Shown here in pieces: positions 56,607 to 64,000 of a stretch of DNA of 64,000 bases. Origin of the DNA: an uncultured virus (IMG/VR IMGVR_UViG_2061766007_000205) (Duplodnaviria > Heunggongvirae > Uroviricota > Caudoviricetes); IMG/VR virus record IMGVR_UViG_2061766007_000205, one strand, 5' to 3'. Numbering within the stretch: position 1 is the first letter of the stretch; every line of letters starts with the position of its first letter. The position numbers were made by a program, and so were the translations under genes. Under the pieces are notes generated by a model. That model saw nothing but the letters and a program-made list of their open reading frames with translations. It did no database searches and was not told where the DNA came from.

Positions 56607-57593
56607 CTATATCAGATTAAGGGCGGTACGTTTTTCATCATTGGTAATTTTGGTATATACCCTTGATGTAACATCACCGCCCTTATGTCCGACAATGGCT
56701 TTTATTATCCTGTCATCCACTTTTGCGGTGACTAAAAGGCTTATAGTCGTGTATCTTGTGCAGTGTAGATCACGATGTTCAAAGCCGTTTTCTTTACGCC
56801 AACGCTTGTATTTATAATACAGTACGCTATATTCACCTAAATACGGCATAGGTAGAAGTTTTTTAGCCTTATCTGATAACGGAACTTCTCTAATTCCGGC
56901 AGGAGTTTTCGCTTTTCCGATATGAATAACTTTGTCTTTGTCAATGCTTTCGGGTTTCATACCACAAAATTCACCCGCTCTCATCCCGGTATAGATCAGG
57001 AATAATAGTATATGCGACATTTCATCATCTATTTTCCATAATCTCGTTATTTCATCATCCGTAAATCTGTCGCGTTCATTTTTATTGACCGCCACATTGC
57101 TTGAAAGGTCAATATAATTGAGTATCGCGACACGTTCAGGTTGGACAATATCATATCTTATCGAGTAGTCGTATAAGTGTTTAAGAACAATCTTGACACG
57201 TTTTTTGACGACAGTAGAACTCTTAAGACTGTCAAAGAATAATTGCAATTCCTTCCGGCTTAATGTAGCAATCGGTTTATCATATAACGGTTTTAGTTTT
57301 TTCCAATGGCTTTTCAGATCAGCAACGCTTTTAGGAGATTGCTGCTCTATATATCCGATGATGAATTTCTCGTAAATGGATTGTACGGTTTCTTTATCAA
57401 GGGAATAAGGAGATTTGTTATATTCCATTAGCGCACTCAACGCATCAGCTTTCGTTCGATAATATCCGATGTACTTGTATATAGGATATCCGCGCTCGTC
57501 AAAACCATCAGTTTTACGAGCAACCCACGGATTTCTGCGCTTGCCGGATAACTTATACACCGAGCCCATGCCGTTGCCTAAACGAGAACTCAT
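56607..57593 (-). CDS. int: Tyrosine integrase
   Basis: TGMRAGE, KTPAG, LHCTRYT, IVGH, VYT catalytic motifs; N-terminal GMGSVYKL arm-binding domain. Confidence 0.93.
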   Translation of the reverse strand: MSSRLGNGMGSVYKLSGKRRNPWVARKTDGFDERGYPIYKYIGYYRTKADALSALMEYNKSPYSLDKETVQSIYEKFIIGYIEQQSPKSVADLKSHWKKLKPLYDKPIATLSRKELQLFFDSLKSSTVVKKRVKIVLKHLYDYSIRYDIVQPERVAILNYIDLSSNVAVNKNERDRFTDDEITRLWKIDDEMSHILLFLIYTGMRAGEFCGMKPESIDKDKVIHIGKAKTPAGIREVPLSDKAKKLLPMPYLGEYSVLYYKYKRWRKENGFEHRDLHCTRYTTISLLVTAKVDDRIIKAIVGHKGGDVTSRVYTKITNDEKRTALNLI

Positions 57594-57994
57594 ACTAGAC
57601 CACCTTTGATGAGTTTGAAGATACAAGTCCCCCCCCTTAACACATTATAAGCGGCTTTCCTCGTACTATCATCAACCTTTCTATACATCTTGATTATTTC
57701 CCTTTCTTCGTCCGATAATTCCTCAAAAGAATAATTCTTATAGTATTCCCGAATTGAACGCGCCTTGTCCGTATCTGTCGCTTGCCATTCTTCGACAAGA
57801 TCAGCCTTACTGATATTAAAATATGATGCCATTATCTCAATCTTATCTATTCGTGGGTATATCTTGGCATTTACCCAATCTGAAAAGGTGTTCTGCTTAA
57901 AACCGCAAGCCTTACATACGTCAGTGGCAGAAACGTGATTGACGTTCATATAATATTGAATATTCTTTGCGATTATCTTTTTGTTTTCAACCAT
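57590..57994 (-). CDS. CI-like Xre-family repressor
   Basis: DVCKACGFKQNTFSDW...YPRIDKIEIMASYFNI; co-oriented with integrase. Confidence 0.85.
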   Translation of the reverse strand: MVENKKIIAKNIQYYMNVNHVSATDVCKACGFKQNTFSDWVNAKIYPRIDKIEIMASYFNISKADLVEEWQATDTDKARSIREYYKNYSFEELSDEEREIIKMYRKVDDSTRKAAYNVLRGGTCIFKLIKGGLV

Positions 57995-58019
57995 AACCAC
58001 AACCCCCTTGCTTATCATC

Positions 58020-58125
58020 ATTATCGGACAAAACGAAAAATATTTCAAGATTTATAAAAAAATGTCTTGACATTATCGGTTAAACCGATTATATTAACAT
58101 ACAGATGGTGTTCGGTTAAACCGAT
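58020..58125. promoter_or_regulatory. Lysis-lysogeny switch: divergent promoters with palindromic operators
   Basis: TTGACA(58067)-17-TATATT rightward; TTGAAA-17-GATAAT leftward; ATCGGTTAAACCGAT at 58075, variants at 58111, 58023 and 58640. Confidence 0.8.
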
Positions 58126-58155
58126 ACCACAATATGTAGAAAGGAGTTTCAATTA

Positions 58156-58210
58156 TGGCTATGACGTTAAAAGCGTTGAGGGTCAATAAGGGATTAGATC
58201 AAAGAACTGC
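58156..58210 (+). CDS. Cro-like HTH protein, 5' fragment (3' fragment probably 58616-58690)
   Basis: AAGGAG SD; MAMTLKALRVNKGLDQRT. Confidence 0.6.
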
Positions 58211-58226
58211 NNNNNNNNNNTAAACA

Positions 58227-58499
58227 ATGGTTTTTAGATACAATAAGTTGAGAGGACGCATAGTTGAAAAGTTTACGACACTTTCACGGTTTGCAAGTGC
58301 ATTGTCAACTTATAAAGGGAAAACAGTAGTAGTTCAGGTGGTGAGTGCAAAACTTACAGGAGCAGTTCGATTTACCATTGATGATGTGGCAGAATGGTGT
58401 GCTGTACTTGAAATCCCGGTTGAAGAAATTGGAATTTATTTTTTTGACTATGAACTTTCAAAAGACGAAAGCGAAAGAATTAAGGAGATCACGGCATGA
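58227..58499 (+). CDS. Cro-like DUF739-type HTH protein (other genotype)
   Basis: FRYNKLRGRIVEKF...EIPVEEIGIYFF. Confidence 0.7.
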   Translation: MVFRYNKLRGRIVEKFTTLSRFASALSTYKGKTVVVQVVSAKLTGAVRFTIDDVAEWCAVLEIPVEEIGIYFFDYELSKDESERIKEITA

Positions 58500-58686
58500 A
58501 CGAATTACAGATTTTCAATAATGAAGAGTTTGGACAGATCAGGACGATTGAGATTGATGGCAAACCGTATTTTGCGGCAAGTGATGTTGCGTCAGCATTA
58601 GGGTANNNNNNNNNNGACATAAATTTTTTACCCCAAAATATCGGTAAAACCGATGTTGAAGGTGAAAAAATAAAGGGGGTGACAGC

Positions 58687-59421
58687 ATGAATGAATTACA
58701 GATTTTTAACAATGCAGAGTTTGGACAGATCAGGACGATTGAGATAGATGGCAAACCGTATTTTGCGGCAAGTGATGTTGCGTCAGCATTAGGGTATAGC
58801 AATCCCCGCAAAGCAATAATAGATCATTGCAAGGGAGTAACGAAACGTGACACCCCTACGAATAGCGGTTTACAGAGCATTAACTTTATTCCTGAAGGGG
58901 ATATTTACCGTTTGATAGTTAAGTCACAGTTACCGAGCGCGGAGAGGTTTGAAAGATGGGTGTTTGATGAAGTTCTTCCAGAGATCAGAAGAACGGGCGG
59001 TTATCAGATGCCGCAAACATATTCAGAAGCGTTAAGGGCATTAGCGGATAAAGCAGAAGAAGCTGAAAGACTTGCCCTTGAAAATGCAGAAATGAAACCT
59101 AAAGCGGAATTTGCAGATGCAATCATAGCTTCAAACACAACGATTCTTGTTGGCGATTTTGCGAAAATCCTCAAACAAAACGGAATAGACACAGGGCAGA
59201 ACCGTTTGTTTAAGTGGTTTGTTGATAACCATTACCTGTTTAAGCGTAACGGTCAGTATGTACCTACACAACGGGCAATGGATTTAGAAGTGTTCGAGGT
59301 TGATTCAAAGCCTGTTCAAATAGGCGATGAAACACAGATAAAACATACAGTACGGGTAACACCCAAAGGGCAGAAATACTTTATAGATAAGTTTTTAAGA
59401 GAAAAGGAGATCGCGGGATGA
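58687..59421 (+). CDS. Antirepressor (BRO-N plus KilA-C/ANT)
   Basis: MNELQIFNN.EFGQIR, FERWVFDEVLP, GQNRLFKW, VTPKGQ. Confidence 0.9.
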   Translation: MNELQIFNNAEFGQIRTIEIDGKPYFAASDVASALGYSNPRKAIIDHCKGVTKRDTPTNSGLQSINFIPEGDIYRLIVKSQLPSAERFERWVFDEVLPEIRRTGGYQMPQTYSEALRALADKAEEAERLALENAEMKPKAEFADAIIASNTTILVGDFAKILKQNGIDTGQNRLFKWFVDNHYLFKRNGQYVPTQRAMDLEVFEVDSKPVQIGDETQIKHTVRVTPKGQKYFIDKFLREKEIAG

Positions 59422-59813
59422 AAACATACGAATTGGAAATGACCGAGAAGGGCAAACTATTTTTCAAAATCTTTTATGAGGTTTTCGGCAATCGTAATGA
59501 GGATGATGCCCCTATTGACCCCGAAGAGGTCAGAGAAACACTACTTAAAACAAGAAGTGACGATTTGAAGTTAATGTTTTTTGAATTTGGTGTCAATGAG
59601 TTTATAGACGCTATTAACTCTATCGGGGAACTTGCAGATGATGAACAGTTTGTTAAGGACATGAAGAAACTTGTTAAGTATCTCAAAAACGACCTTGAAG
59701 CGATAAAAGATGCTTGCGGTGAGGAAGATGATTTGATCGTTGCTCCGGCGAAGAAAGCATATAAGAGAGCGAAGAGAATCTATAAGCACATGAAGGGTAC
59801 ACCATGCGACTAA
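59418..59813 (+). CDS. Hypothetical acidic protein
   Basis: ATGA-coupled ORF. Confidence 0.55.
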   Translation: MKTYELEMTEKGKLFFKIFYEVFGNRNEDDAPIDPEEVRETLLKTRSDDLKLMFFEFGVNEFIDAINSIGELADDEQFVKDMKKLVKYLKNDLEAIKDACGEEDDLIVAPAKKAYKRAKRIYKHMKGTPCD

Positions 59814-59983
59814 CAATCAGAGAAGCATCAAAGCGGCTTGACCTGCCCGAACAGGCACTCCGGGAATGGTTAAAAAGAGGATGCCCGTTTGGTGAGGTTG
59901 TGCATGAAAAGAAGAGCCGGAACGGGCGCCGGACGTACTACATAAACAGTGAGCGACTAGACAAATATCTGAAGGGAGAATAA
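59804..59983 (+). CDS. Excisionase-like HTH protein, 59 aa
   Basis: MRLTIREASKRLDLPEQALREWLKRGCPFG...RRTYYIN. Confidence 0.6.
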   Translation: MRLTIREASKRLDLPEQALREWLKRGCPFGEVVHEKKSRNGRRTYYINSERLDKYLKGE

Positions 59984-60101
59984 GGGGATGAAAAAACTAG
60001 GGGTCATTTACANNNNNNNNNNATGAAGTCAAAGCATGGGCGCCGGACGTACTACATCAATTCTGAAAGACTTGAAAAATATCTGAAGGGAGAATAAGGG
60101 G

Positions 60102-60257
60102 ATGAAAAAACTAGGGGTCATTTACAAAGTTGGAGTTATCATATCATTTCTTGCACTTGCCGGGGTAGCTGAAAGCATAACGGGACGGGGCGACACTATC
60201 ATATCAATCATTCTGCTATTAGTCGGTTTTCTGTGTTGTCTTACGGAGTATGTCTAA
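60102..60257 (+). CDS. Small two-TM protein
   Basis: MKKLGVIYKVGVIISFLALAG...IISIILLLVGFLCCL. Confidence 0.55.
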   Translation: MKKLGVIYKVGVIISFLALAGVAESITGRGDTIISIILLLVGFLCCLTEYV

Positions 60258-60514
60258 TGAATGAGCCATATGTCAATCATACCTTAATGAATAGGGTAAT
60301 GGAGATAAAGCAACGGTCAGAGAACAGCAAGTTTGTTTTAGAGGTCGTAGGACTTACGGATCTGTGGAATAAAGCAATACACATGACAGAGGAAGAACTG
60401 ATAGTTTGTGTGCTTGCAGCATTACAAATATGTCCTGACACAGTATATCAGGCACTTGCAGAGGACAGAAAAGAATTATCAAGGAAGGGGGGAAAAGAGG
60501 ATGGAGACAATTAA
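60257..60514 (+). CDS. Hypothetical protein
   Basis: TAATG-coupled ORF. Confidence 0.55.
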   Translation: MNEPYVNHTLMNRVMEIKQRSENSKFVLEVVGLTDLWNKAIHMTEEELIVCVLAALQICPDTVYQALAEDRKELSRKGGKEDGDN

Positions 60515-60680
60515 TGTTTTCAAAAGAGGGGACAGGGTTTTTCTTGAGTATGAAATAGACAGCAAATTTATGCACGATGATGAGATTTATTACAAACTCA
60601 AGGACACCAAAAACGGAACGTATCTGAATAATGCTTACACGGCAGAAGAACTTATACCTGCCAGAGAGGTAGCGGAATGA
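60501..60680 (+). CDS. Small beta-barrel-like hypothetical protein
   Basis: METINVFKRGDRVFL... Confidence 0.5.
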   Translation: METINVFKRGDRVFLEYEIDSKFMHDDEIYYKLKDTKNGTYLNNAYTAEELIPAREVAE

Positions 60681-60988
60681 AGTGTCCGAAATGCCGGATA
60701 GATCAAACGGAAGTTTACGGCGGTCAAGCTATAAAGCATACATACATGAGGTACAGAAGATGCCTTGCGTGTGGCTACAAGTTCAAAACGATAGAAAGGA
60801 TAGACCTAGACGACATGGTGAGCAAATGTGTATGTGCGGTATGCAAGGAAATGCTATATCCCGATGACGAATATTACGAGATTGACGACAGGATCATGTG
60901 CGAGAACTGCGCGGATGAATGGTTAAGTTCTCAAAAGAATTGGGTGACTGAAGATATGGCATACGGAGACAGATTTGACGATGTTTAG
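60677..60988 (+). CDS. Double zinc-finger protein (NrdR-like ribbon at N-terminus)
   Basis: MKCPKC...RYRRCLACGYKFKTIE; CAVC...CENC. Confidence 0.65.
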   Translation: MKCPKCRIDQTEVYGGQAIKHTYMRYRRCLACGYKFKTIERIDLDDMVSKCVCAVCKEMLYPDDEYYEIDDRIMCENCADEWLSSQKNWVTEDMAYGDRFDDV

Positions 60989-61490
60989 ACAATTTCCGGG
61001 GGCAGGAACTATAACCACTTGCCTTAACTGCACAGAAAGACATCCTGCTTGTCACGATACTTGTGAGAGGTACATCACCGAGAAGAAAGAACGTGATGCA
61101 AAGATAGCGGAAATCCGNNNNNNNNNNCTACGAAATTGACGACAGAATCATGTGCGAGAACTGCGCGGATGAATGGTTAAGTTGTCAAAAGAATTGGGTG
61201 ACTGAAGATATGGCATACGGAGACAGATTTGACGNNNNNNNNNNTCGGCACTTGATGCGGCTTACGATCGGTGGAAAACAACACCACCAGAGCCGGAAGA
61301 GAGCAAATACAAGTGTATTGAGTGTGAGTGTGATCTTTACCCCGGTGATGATGCCTATGAATTAGATGGGTATGTCTATTGCGAAGATCACGCTAAAGAG
61401 TGGTTTGAGAGCCACAAATATACGATACCTGACGAGTAATCGTTTGGCATACAACCTTCTGAAAAGTCTGTGTTATCGGACTAATACGGG

Positions 61491-61896
61491 CAAGAACATA
61501 AGATTAAAGAATATCGTATTTCAGCACATAACAGAAGATAACATCATTAAGGACATAGCATCGGCATTAAGCCGAATAAGAATACGCTAAAGCAGAGAAA
61601 AAAGCACGAATATATAGCGTAATTAAGAATAGCACAGGAAATGAAAAAACACTTAATGTCGGTGCTATGCCCTTAAAGGGAGTTTATTTGAAAAAAGTAA
61701 ATCAAACGACACCAAAACATACTAAAGAACAAAACAATTTAATTTAAGGGCATAGTGCTGATATTAAAGCCCAAGACAGTACACGGCAATACATTCATAT
61801 AAAGAATAAGCCGCTTTAATGTCAGCCTTATGCCGTTAACAGGCAGAAAGTACAAAACAAAATAACGTATTAAAGATCAATTCAGTACAAAAAAAG
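61491..61896 (+). ncRNA. Array of five 5-nt-periodic (ANA-NN) tracts separated by four inverted-repeat arms; candidate guide-RNA array
   Basis: A at every fifth position over 8-16 consecutive pentamers per tract; arms 61547-61571/61652-61676 and 61744-61770/61813-61839 pair with G-U wobble. Confidence 0.8.
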
Positions 61897-61911
61897 GAAG
61901 GGGGTGAACAC

Positions 61912-62358
61912 ATGGAATACGAAATCAAGTGGGCGGTCAAAGGACTACATAAAGGCGATGCACAGAAATGTTACAACGAGTGTCAGACCTTGAATGAAGT
62001 CACACCGCAGAGCGTTCTTGAAAAAGCACGAAATAAAAAGACGGAACTTCACAAATGTTTTGAATGGGATGATTCAGTAGCATCTGAAAAGTACCGCCTT
62101 ATACAAGCAAGACAGATTATACAACATTTCGTGATAATTCACAACGAAGGTGAAGAAACCGAGCAAAAGATACGCTCATATCAGGTCACAACAGAAGCAA
62201 CGAAGTATGAAAAGACCGAACTGTTTTTACAGAAGCCGGATGAATATGCCGCACTTCTGGAACGTGCAAAGGCGGAACTTGAAGCCTTTAAGAACAGATA
62301 TAGGACTTTGACAGAACTTGAAAGCATTTTTGCAGAAATCGACTTATTGCTCACATAA
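61912..62358 (+). CDS. Conserved partner protein of the RAMP gene, function unknown
   Basis: GGGGGTG SD; LHKCFEWDDSVASEKYRLIQAR; embedded between the two arrays; second allele at 63926. Confidence 0.75.
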   Translation: MEYEIKWAVKGLHKGDAQKCYNECQTLNEVTPQSVLEKARNKKTELHKCFEWDDSVASEKYRLIQARQIIQHFVIIHNEGEETEQKIRSYQVTTEATKYEKTELFLQKPDEYAALLERAKAELEAFKNRYRTLTELESIFAEIDLLLT

Positions 62359-62364
62359 GAATAA

Positions 62365-62559
62365 GCCTTGATGGGTGGATTGTTGGCTATTTGCCAAAGT
62401 AAAGGAAACTTCAATAAACAAAACCAAAGATAATCATAGCAAAGGAAACAATAGGACATTAAAAAACACTTTACATCAGATAGTCAGCAATGCACCTATC
62501 AAGGCGAGCAGATTAAACATTAGAGAATAAGAACAAAATGCAGAACACTTTAGCAAACA
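62365..62559 (+). ncRNA. Second array: 29-bp stem enclosing 16 ANA-NN pentamers, followed by 11 more
   Basis: 62365-62393 pairs with 62477-62505 (four G-U pairs, one mismatch); 16/16 loop pentamers have A at position 3. Confidence 0.8.
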
Positions 62560-62581
62560 ATCAGCAAAGGAGAACAAAAAC

Positions 62582-63265
62582 ATGGCAAAAAAGACAGAAA
62601 CAATCGTATTGGAGCAGATAAGAAAAGGTAGTTTGATCGTAACAATCGAAGGTATGACAGACCTTCTGTTAAAGGCAATGCCCCGGTCAACAGAGTTAGA
62701 GCAGATATTTAAGCAGTCACATCCGAAGGGAACAAAGATTCCTGCAAAGTTCACACAGCCGTATTGCTTGTGGGAAAAACTGATAACTTCTATTCATTGG
62801 CAGAATCCTATCACGTTACATGACGATGATTGGTCGCTTTATACCGAAGATGAATGGAAGGACTACATGAAGAACAACAAGCCTTGCATCTTGGGTAAAG
62901 CATTTAAGGATTCATTTAAGGAAACATTTGTTTCGTGCGGATTCAAGGAAACAACGGGCAAGGCAGGAACAGACTTTAACAGGACGGTATCAATATCCGC
63001 ATTGAACCCTGTAACATTTGTTGAAGCATCTTATGAACAGACGTTGCCGGAAACAAGCGGTTTGAATAGAACAAAAGTGTTGACGGAAACTAACAGATTC
63101 AGCGGTTGGAAGTGTGATTTTAAGATCAGTTATCTTGAATCCGCTTTCCCGAAAGAAACACTTATGGAAATCATTTCTTATGCCGGAGAGTTTATCGGTA
63201 TCGGCGCAAGACGTGGCGAAGGTTATGGAAGATATTGCATAACCAACATGAAAACAGCGGAATAA
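62582..63265 (+). CDS. Stand-alone RAMP-superfamily (Cas7-like) protein
   Basis: N-terminal strand LIVTIEGMTDLLL, CILGKAFKDSF helix motif, C-terminal Gly-rich loop GIGARRGEGYGRY. Confidence 0.75.
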   Translation: MAKKTETIVLEQIRKGSLIVTIEGMTDLLLKAMPRSTELEQIFKQSHPKGTKIPAKFTQPYCLWEKLITSIHWQNPITLHDDDWSLYTEDEWKDYMKNNKPCILGKAFKDSFKETFVSCGFKETTGKAGTDFNRTVSISALNPVTFVEASYEQTLPETSGLNRTKVLTETNRFSGWKCDFKISYLESAFPKETLMEIISYAGEFIGIGARRGEGYGRYCITNMKTAE

Positions 63266-63315
63266 ATAGTTGTAGCTGACCTAACGGCATGACGGGGTAG
63301 GGAAGGATATATCAC

Positions 63316-63575
63316 ATGGCAAATGAATTAACGGTTAAGGAAAAAGGTATTGCGGAGTACCTTGCAAGTCCGGCGGTCAAAGAGAATATCATCAATGTTT
63401 TAGGCGAGAAACACGCGGATGCTTTCATATCTGATTTAGTGGCTTGCGTTCAAAACAATACGGAATTAGCGAAATGCTCAAACAAGTCTATTTTTTCAGC
63501 GGCATTGTTAAGTAGGTCGATCAACTTACCACTTACACCGCAGTTATCTTATTGCTATCTCGTTCCATTTAACAA
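63316..63575 (+). CDS. recT: RecT-family single-strand annealing protein, 5' fragment
   Basis: LAKCSNKSIFSAAL...LPLTPQLSYCYLVPF. Confidence 0.75.
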
Positions 63576-63737
63576 NNNNNNNNNNAAGGTACATCACCGA
63601 GAAGAAAGAACGTGATGCAAAGGTAGCGGAAATCCGCAAGAACAGGAGACTATCTCTCGAACTGTACCATCACAAGATAGAAAAGATGCGGCAGGAGGAT
63701 AAAAAGCACAAATACAAATGAAAGGAGGAAAGCACAC

Positions 63738-63926
63738 ATGATTTACAGAGTAATTCTGAAAGTTGGGTATCACAACGCACATTTCGATTTTGAAACGGTG
63801 GAAGATGCGGCAACATTCGCAAGGGTAGCATTGTCTCATATGGTTGATTGTGACGACACGAAAGCGAAAGCGTCTATCACGATGCTGATAATCGACCCTA
63901 CGAAGGAAAGTGAGGAGGATGACTGA
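63738..63926 (+). CDS. Hypothetical protein
   Basis: AAGGAGG SD. Confidence 0.55.
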   Translation: MIYRVILKVGYHNAHFDFETVEDAATFARVALSHMVDCDDTKAKASITMLIIDPTKESEEDD

Positions 63927-64000
63927 TGGAAAGAATCAGATGGTCGGTTGAGGGACTTCACAAAGCTGATGCTCAAAAATGCTACAACGAATGTCAGACC
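63926..64000 (+). CDS. Second allele of the RAMP partner protein (truncated by window end)
   Basis: MERIRWSVEGLHKADAQKCYNECQT versus MEYEIKWAVKGLHKGDAQKCYNECQT. Confidence 0.75.
   Translation, partial: MERIRWSVEGLHKADAQKCYNECQT

Follow-up and report, generated by a model that had tools for sequence, protein, structure and literature searches.

Conserved long RNA stems bracket A-rich pentamer tracts beside a vipr gene in a prophage early region

VIPR (Viral Interference Programmable Repeat) is a CRISPR-like, RNA-guided silencer described in 2026, in which the small RAMP protein Vipr coats a vrRNA of 9-16 pentamers (PMC13142463). Each pentamer combines GGY with two free bases, which read the DNA while skipping one base, and a structured 3' tail follows the repeats (PMC13142463). 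Seven VIPR types have been distinguished, whose arrays are laid out in different ways, staggered ones among them (PMC13142463, legends S18 and S19), and in other types hammerhead ribozymes lie between the vrRNAs (PMC13142463, Results and legend S19). According to the available text on SUSP1, a pseudoknot closes off the vrRNA at its 3' end and protomers appear to add in the 3' to 5' direction starting from it (10.64898/2026.04.26.720927). Non-canonical VIPR-like 5-nt arrays have also been described, with the units GAC/NN, CAC/NN, WGT/NN and TGH/NN in the accessible part of that preprint (10.64898/2026.10.21.760802). The text and supplement of the discovery paper make no mention of a stem, an RNase, an inverted repeat or biogenesis in the sense of guide making, while its figures may show stems; likewise, guide-flanking stems and RNase processing are not mentioned in the accessible portions of the companion preprints. 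As far as these texts extend, the VIPR literature thus gives no account of how guide RNAs are produced.

Here we describe a locus in a stretch of 64,000 nucleotides from an uncultured virus, referred to as the window. To the extent that the sources are accessible, it resembles the type II VIPR of SUSP1 and of a Pseudomonas fulva prophage (PMC13142463; 10.64898/2026.04.26.720927; 10.64898/2026.10.15.759431) in its phage-encoded Vipr with a partner gene, its long non-coding flanks, its tandem pentamers, in which three bases are fixed and two are free, with 9-16 units making up a guide, and a structured element adjoining the tract. It differs from what these sources describe in the pentamer, which is A-H-A/NN here and GGY/NN there, and in the position of the arrays, which lie before the partner gene ORF148 and between ORF148 and vipr. 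Its relatives are found in Clostridia and its Vipr is distant (profile E 3e-7). In place of the 3' pseudoknot tail reported for SUSP1, a helix of 20-38 bp forms from both flanks of the tract; by analogy, this long helix may be the equivalent of the SUSP1 structured tail.

A vipr gene and a conserved partner in a prophage early region

The prophage early region spans 56.6-64 kb of the window (Table 1); after the CI-like repressor gene, rightward genes encode Ant, an HTH protein and several small proteins of the zinc-ribbon kind. A viral or proviral setting is indicated by the integrase, CI-like repressor, Ant and RecT genes close by and by the presence of relatives in IMG/VR contigs. Two non-coding stretches hold the arrays, with an A fraction of 0.43 for array 1 and 0.47 for array 2. 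Scaffold joins of ten N each are located at 60014-60023, 61118-61127, 61236-61245 and 63577-63586. No promoter- or terminator-like sites on the + strand exceeded the shuffles. As array 1, ORF148, array 2 and vipr share a strand in addition, we infer that they are read from one early transcript. An Rfam scan of 58000-64000 (E <= 1) returned no family, hence no ribozyme, riboswitch or known sRNA, and among 50,697 phage records blastn found nothing that matches 61246-63573.

A PDB search with a profile of 31 ORF227 homologues matched a single solved chain, 36pp_D 'SUSP1 Vipr protein' (E 3e-7), and the glycine-rich loops of profile and chain align. Residues G202, G206, G208, R211 and G216 are invariant among the Vipr homologues, and no Pfam family matches ORF227. 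Its AlphaFold model (pLDDT 90.4) has Csm3, Cmr4 and type VII Cas7 as the top Foldseek rows (E 9e-8 to 2e-5, probability 1.00). VIPR is characterised by a minimal RAMP that has an RRM core, a glycine-rich loop and a thumb. Going by the Vipr profile match and the predicted RAMP fold, we identify the locus as a VIPR system; it sits in the early operon of a Clostridia-type prophage.

Accessory genes beside vipr have been published as vap1-6. ORF148, the candidate vap, is syntenic with vipr in related loci and matches phrog_15946 (E 2.4e-18). No Pfam family was found for it, nor a PDB sequence match below E 0.27, and in the Atlas it falls into unnamed viral clusters only. Its model (pLDDT 90.8) gave no Foldseek match at E <= 0.001 and, as a fold, only weak winged-helix-like rows with Z about 4. 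A Cas10a row in PADLOC (E 2e-4) was taken as chance.

Table 1 Features of the locus with positions in the window and supporting observations.
Feature	Position	Strand	Remarks
Integrase	56607-57626	-	
CI-like repressor	57590-58048	-	
Non-coding stretch, 472 nt, holds array 1	61440-61911		Upstream of ORF148
Leader of array 1, weaker pentamer tract ~61490-61545	61440-61546	+	7/10 A-N-A units, run test p 0.004
Arm 1, 5'-type arm of hairpin 1	61547-61571	+	Pairing probability with arm 2 0.95
Loop 1, A-rich, 80 nt, weak 5-nt periodicity	61572-61651	+	9/15 A-N-A units, run test p 0.082
Arm 2, 3'-type arm of hairpin 1, also pairs with arm 3	61652-61676	+	
Inter-hairpin spacer tract, 9/10 units	61677-61743	+	Run 61694-61738, 9 units, run test p 0.0
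Arm 3, 5'-type arm of hairpin 2	61744-61770	+	Pairing probability with arm 4 0.89
Loop 3, 42-nt tract	61771-61812	+	5/8 units, run test p 0.71 (n.s.), period-5 power z 3.1
Arm 4, 3'-type arm of hairpin 2	61813-61839	+	
Array-1 trailer and ORF148 ribosome-binding region	61840-61911	+	6/10 units, marginal; run test p 0.11
ORF148, conserved partner, candidate vap	61912-62358	+	Upstream of vipr
Non-coding stretch, 223 nt, holds array 2	62359-62581		Between ORF148 and ORF227
5' arm, array-2 hairpin	62365-62393	+	Covariation
Array-2 loop, clearest guide-like tract	62394-62476	+	Run 62396-62470, 15 A-H-A/NN units
3' arm, array-2 hairpin	62477-62505	+	Covariation
Trailer and vipr ribosome-binding region, not periodic	62506-62581	+	Run test p 0.72, z -0.5
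vipr (ORF227), RAMP, Cas7/Csm3-like, 227 aa	62582-63265	+	Profile and model
RecT gene	from 63316		Downstream of ORF227

Long inverted repeats maintained as + strand RNA helices

The whole 64-kb window was scanned for long inverted repeats with all mismatches penalised alike (score >=14, loop 25-150 nt). Four were found, all of them at the VIPR locus, and none in each of five shuffles. An earlier note on this DNA had placed four arms of alternating orientation in array 1 and a 29-bp stem in array 2, and the repeat search recovered exactly these coordinates. Arms 1 and 2 pair over 25 nt (88% complementary), arms 3 and 4 over 27 nt (85%) and the arms of the array-2 hairpin over 29 nt (83%), while arms 2 and 4 are direct copies with 79% identity. 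An alternative pairing of arms 2 and 3 extends over 38 nt (61653-61690/61730-61767, 74% complementary), of which the strand-neutral scan reports 25 bp, namely 21 Watson-Crick and 4 G-U pairs. Tandem Repeats Finder detected nothing in either array, since the pentamers are too degenerate for it.

That arm 2 might choose between arms 1 and 3 had been suggested before. The helix of arms 2 and 3 is indeed as stable in isolation as the other two (-38.7 kcal/mol versus -37.1 for arms 1 and 2 and -35.0 for arms 3 and 4), but in the full transcript its equilibrium probability is about 0, compared to 0.95 for arms 1 and 2 and 0.89 for arms 3 and 4. Any role of this pairing would be confined to RNA that is still being transcribed or has already been cut.

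In the strand-neutral scan, the mismatches of the window's four stems break down into 12 G-U (read on the + strand), a single A-C and 3 of other kinds, which bears out the earlier observation that most deviations from complementarity are G-U when read on this strand. Folding energies point in the same direction, with z values of -7.6 for the + strand versus -3.6 for the - strand in 61430-61911 and of -7.0 versus -1.6 in 62350-62585.

Relatives of ORF148 occur in 25 viral contigs. In 14 distinct loci a Vipr homologue of 210-234 aa lies downstream, and an A-rich gap of 200-800 nt separates both genes. The same layout is seen in 5 of 5 loci from Clostridia MAGs (Faecalimonas, Oscillospiraceae, Lachnospiraceae), with Vipr 31-34% identical. 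Across the 14 phage and 5 MAG loci the gap before vipr contains 1-5 hairpins; four of the five MAG gaps hold 2-5, and the remaining one, L031, holds a single hairpin with an atypical T-rich loop. Minimum-energy folds of 17 gaps from the window and the 14 loci yielded 34 hairpins (33 distinct). Their stems have a median of 27 pairs (range 20-38), and the loops span 42-110 nt with a median of 76 nt. Six loci (L006, L012 and L014-L017) were left out as near-duplicates of L005, L011 and L013 according to their ORF maps. The hairpin counts omit L021-L025, which carry distant vap homologues, some without an A-rich gap downstream, and the strand-neutral mismatch, Fourier and run tests omit L001 and L008 as near-copies of the window and of L007, respectively.

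Thirteen hairpins share enough sequence to be aligned into one consensus helix of 28 pairs. Compensatory double changes are present at 22 of the 28 pairs and 95.6% of the cells are paired, whereas slid registers reach 32-40% and 0 of 500 shuffles attain any of five measures. After inclusion of the array-1 hairpins and one hairpin each of L010 and L030, 24 of 28 pairs show compensatory changes and 92.2% of the cells are paired, again with 0 of 500 shuffles as high. All of these added hairpins align with the array-2 family and share its conserved 3'-arm consensus. The array-2 stem, which the earlier note had regarded as unrelated to array 1, is thus a member of the same family with the same 28-pair structure. 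Judged by this alignment, arms 1 and 3 are 5'-type and arms 2 and 4 are 3'-type, and the alternating orientation follows from array 1 being two paralogous hairpins in tandem.

The mismatch bias extends to the related loci. Strand-neutral comparison of 29 repeats from 14 gaps gave 102 G-U on the + strand, 15 A-C and 18 other mismatches; the energy-based hairpin set contains 139 G-U versus 16 A-C, and the MAG gaps add a further 42 versus 5. At several helix positions a G-U pair is kept in most family members. Since G-T is the most tolerated mismatch in single-stranded DNA, the G-U bias alone would be compatible with a DNA hairpin, and the folding energy favours the + strand in only 23 of 33 hairpins, which weighs against an RNA-strand reading. 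Covariation together with the excess of G-U over A-C upholds selection on the stems as + strand RNA, as proposed earlier. The stems are real, evolutionarily maintained + strand RNA helices that bracket or separate pentamer tracts beside vipr.

Pentamer tracts and their exchange between constant arms

Periodicity of the A-rich segments was assessed in the window and 12 related loci by a run-based test against shuffles. This test was adopted because Fourier power at period 5 is weak in most loops: computed over whole segments, z exceeds 3 in only 5 of 29. Significance at p <= 0.05 was reached by 22 of the 29 loops, 6 of the 7 spacers between hairpins, both leaders and 4 of the 11 trailers, but by none of the 13 coding controls. 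Weak periodicity in seven loops counts against the guide explanation; p is 0.08 for loop 1 and 0.71 for loop 3, and five further loops belong to this group. In array 1 the spacer tract between the hairpins is the most periodic, and of 16 consecutive pentamers in the loop of array 2, 13 carry A at positions 1 and 3 (period-5 power z 8.9, run test p 0.0). The earlier proposal that the stems punctuate guide-like arrays is supported insofar as 5-nt-periodic tracts are found beside a Vipr RAMP gene and a conserved partner gene.

A logo pooled from 27 tracts (273 units), in which positions 1 and 3 are A by the selection criterion, has C, A or T at position 2, with G at 0.03, and is near even at positions 4-5. 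This composition defines the unit A-H-A/NN, and runs of 5-15 such units make up the individual tracts. From their near-even composition, positions 4-5 would carry the specificity. Periodic tracts are present both inside loops and between hairpins. The distance from the end of a tract to the following arm is 0-10 nt for 24 of the 27, and across 13 hairpins the periodic A columns hold register with the 3' arm. The sequence features together suggest that the A-rich tracts are Vipr guides. When the free dinucleotides of the tracts were used for a target search in the window and 22 loci (~250 kb), no targets above the shuffled-order controls were obtained with skip rules 0-2; at skip 3, only the tracts themselves were recovered, as should be. 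On the opposite strand A-C-A overlaps WGT or TGH, and the family described here may therefore be among the non-canonical clusters, as far as these are covered by the accessible text.

Closely related strains keep the arms and replace the tracts. In L001, whose ORF148 is 99% identical, all four arms are retained, and the leader and the tract between arms 2 and 3 differ. The same holds for contigs of four further gut metagenome runs, in which the arms persist and the tracts are swapped. One contig of run X13 matches the window at 61547-61681 and 61743-63297, with 76 other letters in place of the intervening 61 and a different leader up to 61547. Of two X5 contigs, one matches from 61743 on and another up to 61677. 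In one X8 contig the match is confined to 61648-61679 around arm 2, with unlike sequence on either side, and in one X4 contig it ends at 61575; contigs of both runs carry other sequence in the region of loop 1. At least 10 break points fall into array 1; of the 10 listed, 8 are no more than 5 nt away from the edge of an arm, the exceptions being 61484 and 61623. Array 2 is unchanged in all four runs except for 62461 A>T. Within the family, the similarity of arms exceeds that of loops for 74 of 78 pairs (0.60 vs 0.40). Constant arms with swapped tracts suggest a route by which the guide repertoire could turn over without an acquisition machine.

Proposed role of the stems and comparison with known systems

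From their sequence context, the stems are probably the sites at which individual guides are excised or receive a cap. Our preferred reading is that they are guide boundary elements of VIPR vrRNAs, likely cut by RNase III, to which we assign a probability of roughly 0.5. An early rightward transcript would run through array 1, ORF148, array 2 and vipr, and its 25-29-nt arms of alternating orientation would pair into long helices. These would enclose or separate A-rich tracts of 9-15 pentamers, with A-H-A fixed and two bases free, the presumed programmable part, which would be coated by Vipr. The helices would set the end of one guide and the start of the next, and a double-strand-specific host RNase, such as RNase III, would cut them. 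Single guides, each with short remnants of the stems, would in this way be released from the same mRNA that codes for both proteins.

RNase III needs roughly two helical turns, and its classic substrates are helices like these, 25-30 bp long and interrupted by nothing but G-U pairs and the occasional single mismatch. The helices at this locus are consistently at or above roughly two turns, and the hairpins of the related gaps are near-perfect double-stranded RNA of this kind (median 27 pairs, mostly G-U mismatches). That RNase III is the enzyme which does the cutting, as the earlier note had also supposed, is a putative assignment by analogy that we hold at a shade under even odds. The need for a cut between guides is real, because other VIPR types place self-cleaving ribozymes there.

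In the main competing explanation, which we consider rather unlikely but to which the sequence data fit equally well, the stems stay uncut and are kept as a vrRNA handle or cap, the counterpart of the SUSP1 3' pseudoknot tail. In this role they would determine the register of the Vipr filament and how far it extends, and would protect both ends against exonucleases; the ends themselves would arise by trimming up to the helix through other RNases. The capped 3' end and the apparent 3' to 5' addition of protomers in SUSP1, as given in the available text (10.64898/2026.04.26.720927), agree with such a role, and so do tracts that abut the following arm with their A columns in register, and arm sequence conserved beyond the need for pairing, e.g., a shared core, G-G-C/G-U-C, in which one G-U pair is fixed. 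On the other hand, 25-38 bp are more than a handle requires, the inter-hairpin tracts have no closing helix of their own, and the ribozymes of other VIPR types show that cutting is needed. Cut and cap are compatible, as a cut in the middle of the helix would leave a stub that caps the guide. Alternatively, Vipr or ORF148 itself could recognise and cut the stems in the manner of a Cas6 RAMP, an explanation we regard as improbable. Vipr is a RAMP with a glycine-rich loop, the conserved arm sequence could serve as a protein recognition site, and PADLOC lists weak Cas6 rows (E 0.0017 and 0.023). Yet the best structural neighbours of Vipr are Cas7/Csm3 backbone subunits and not Cas6, ORF148 lacks a nuclease-like match, the VIPR literature texts name no nuclease activity of Vipr in the parts searched, and Cas6 substrates are short hairpins, far shorter than the stems here.

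The arms might also act mainly as DNA, as homology or hairpin sites for the exchange of guide cassettes, with RNA pairing being secondary. Strain break points at the arm edges with replacement of whole tracts, the adjoining RecT gene and the tolerance of DNA hairpins for G-T mismatches speak for this view. We nevertheless give it very little weight: homologous recombination requires neither inverted orientation nor maintained pairing, and compensatory changes keep 22-24 of 28 pairs among hairpins that differ in arm sequence. In addition, no integron-type integrase is encoded near the locus, and CRISPR arrays, too, exchange cassettes at their conserved repeats as a side effect. That the repeats arose by chance, or are terminators or relics of mobile elements with no relation to the genes around them, has their intergenic position in its favour and nothing further. 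The shuffle controls and the lack of such repeats elsewhere in the window, the covariation, and the conservation of the stems in 14 phage and 5 MAG loci refute this explanation. No terminator-like + strand sites, Rfam families or phage-database DNA matches were found.

RNase III-cut boundary elements would give the covarying 25-30-bp helix around every guide a place in a testable maturation model, with processing by host RNase III set against a protective cap. Long helices would represent a second solution beside ribozymes and pseudoknot tails, and for engineering they suggest a simple way of expressing several guides from one transcript. More tentatively, and on balance doubtful in its full extent, the family may constitute a Clostridia-phage VIPR type that combines an A-H-A/NN code, arm-bracketed guides, and arms serving both as RNase III sites and as homology for cassette swaps. 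If true, host-RNase-III-dependent guide maturation would have been invented independently of type II CRISPR, and whole guide cassettes would be swapped between rival phages at constant arms. In this case loop and inter-hairpin tracts would both become guides, as the arm orientation alternates.

Like the non-canonical VIPR-like arrays, the locus has 5-nt periodic arrays adjoining a Vipr-like fold; unlike them, it has flanking stems, of which the accessible text of that report makes no mention (10.64898/2026.10.21.760802). With ribozyme-interspersed and staggered VIPR arrays (PMC13142463) it shares a dedicated element between guides that sets their boundaries, and it differs from them in that the element is a long double-stranded RNA helix with no ribozyme detected. 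As in Cas6-processed CRISPR, constant elements punctuate variable guides beside a RAMP gene and the variable parts turn over. In contrast to Cas6-processed repeats, the arms alternate in orientation, pair across the guide and form far longer helices; neither a Cas6-like best match nor acquisition genes were found at the locus. Processing helices of RNase III are known from the leader-trailer stems of 16S/23S rRNA, T7 early mRNA, dicBF of prophage Qin and the tracrRNA:pre-crRNA duplex of type II CRISPR. The stems described here resemble them in extending over at least two turns, in enclosing or separating functional RNAs within a longer transcript and in tolerating G-U pairs, whereas their cleavage is putative and the enclosed RNA is a presumed pentamer-repeat guide. 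Guides bracketed by stems are not described in the VIPR literature as far as its texts are accessible.

ORF148 homologues with and without an array

Distant homologues of ORF148, the conserved partner gene upstream of the RAMP protein gene vipr, share 35-42% identity with it in five related loci (L021-L025). In these loci the A-rich gap appears to be absent downstream of the homologue, and in L022-L024 the 872 nt that follow are G-rich, not A-rich. Thus, the partner gene is apparently also present outside the array context.

Near-duplicate sequence flanks the ten-N scaffold joins, suggesting that two related phage variants are tangled in a single assembly. The sequence 3' of 63587 continues that of 61067-61117, and the piece ends in a second ORF148 homologue. 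Since a 62-aa ORF immediately precedes this homologue, the upstream array is absent in that phage variant. Several small zinc-ribbon proteins are encoded immediately upstream of the VIPR locus; among them an NrdR-like ribbon was identified (E 7.6e-8), as well as a LIM-like match that is weak, and their genes are partially duplicated across the scaffold joins.

Hairpins near the arrays and vipr

A small hairpin within the array-1 leader was found again, with altered sequence, in the near-identical phage L001, where a T run follows it immediately before arm 1. It might represent the end of an upstream unit or the start of the array transcript.

A second hairpin family recurs immediately 5' of vipr. 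As its 3' arm appears to lie within the called vipr ORF in L011 and L013, the start codons of both were probably called too far upstream. The loop of the pre-vipr hairpin in a Clostridia MAG (L031) is T-rich (A 0.28), not A-rich; the tract could have decayed or could be read in another way.

Coordinates of the features
Feature	Sequence	Position
Zinc-ribbon genes	window	60677-60988, 61150-61439
Near-duplicates at joins	window	59925-60100, 61067-61235, 63577-64000
Leader hairpin	window	61466-61491
Leader hairpin	L001	~2596-2625
ORF148	window	61912-62358
Second ORF148 homologue	window	from 63927
Second-family hairpin	L018	2804-2943
Second-family hairpin	L009	3876-4003
Second-family hairpin	L011, L013 (trailers)	
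Pre-vipr hairpin	L031	2069-2192

Predicted structure of ORF148

The structure of ORF148 was modeled with confidence (pLDDT 90.8), and comparison of the model with known structures returned no clear relative. Two long C-terminal helices follow residues 7-110, which gave only weak winged-helix-like matches to Fur, IdeR, Z-alpha and SelB (Z ~4). ORF148 may be a vap that binds nucleic acid.
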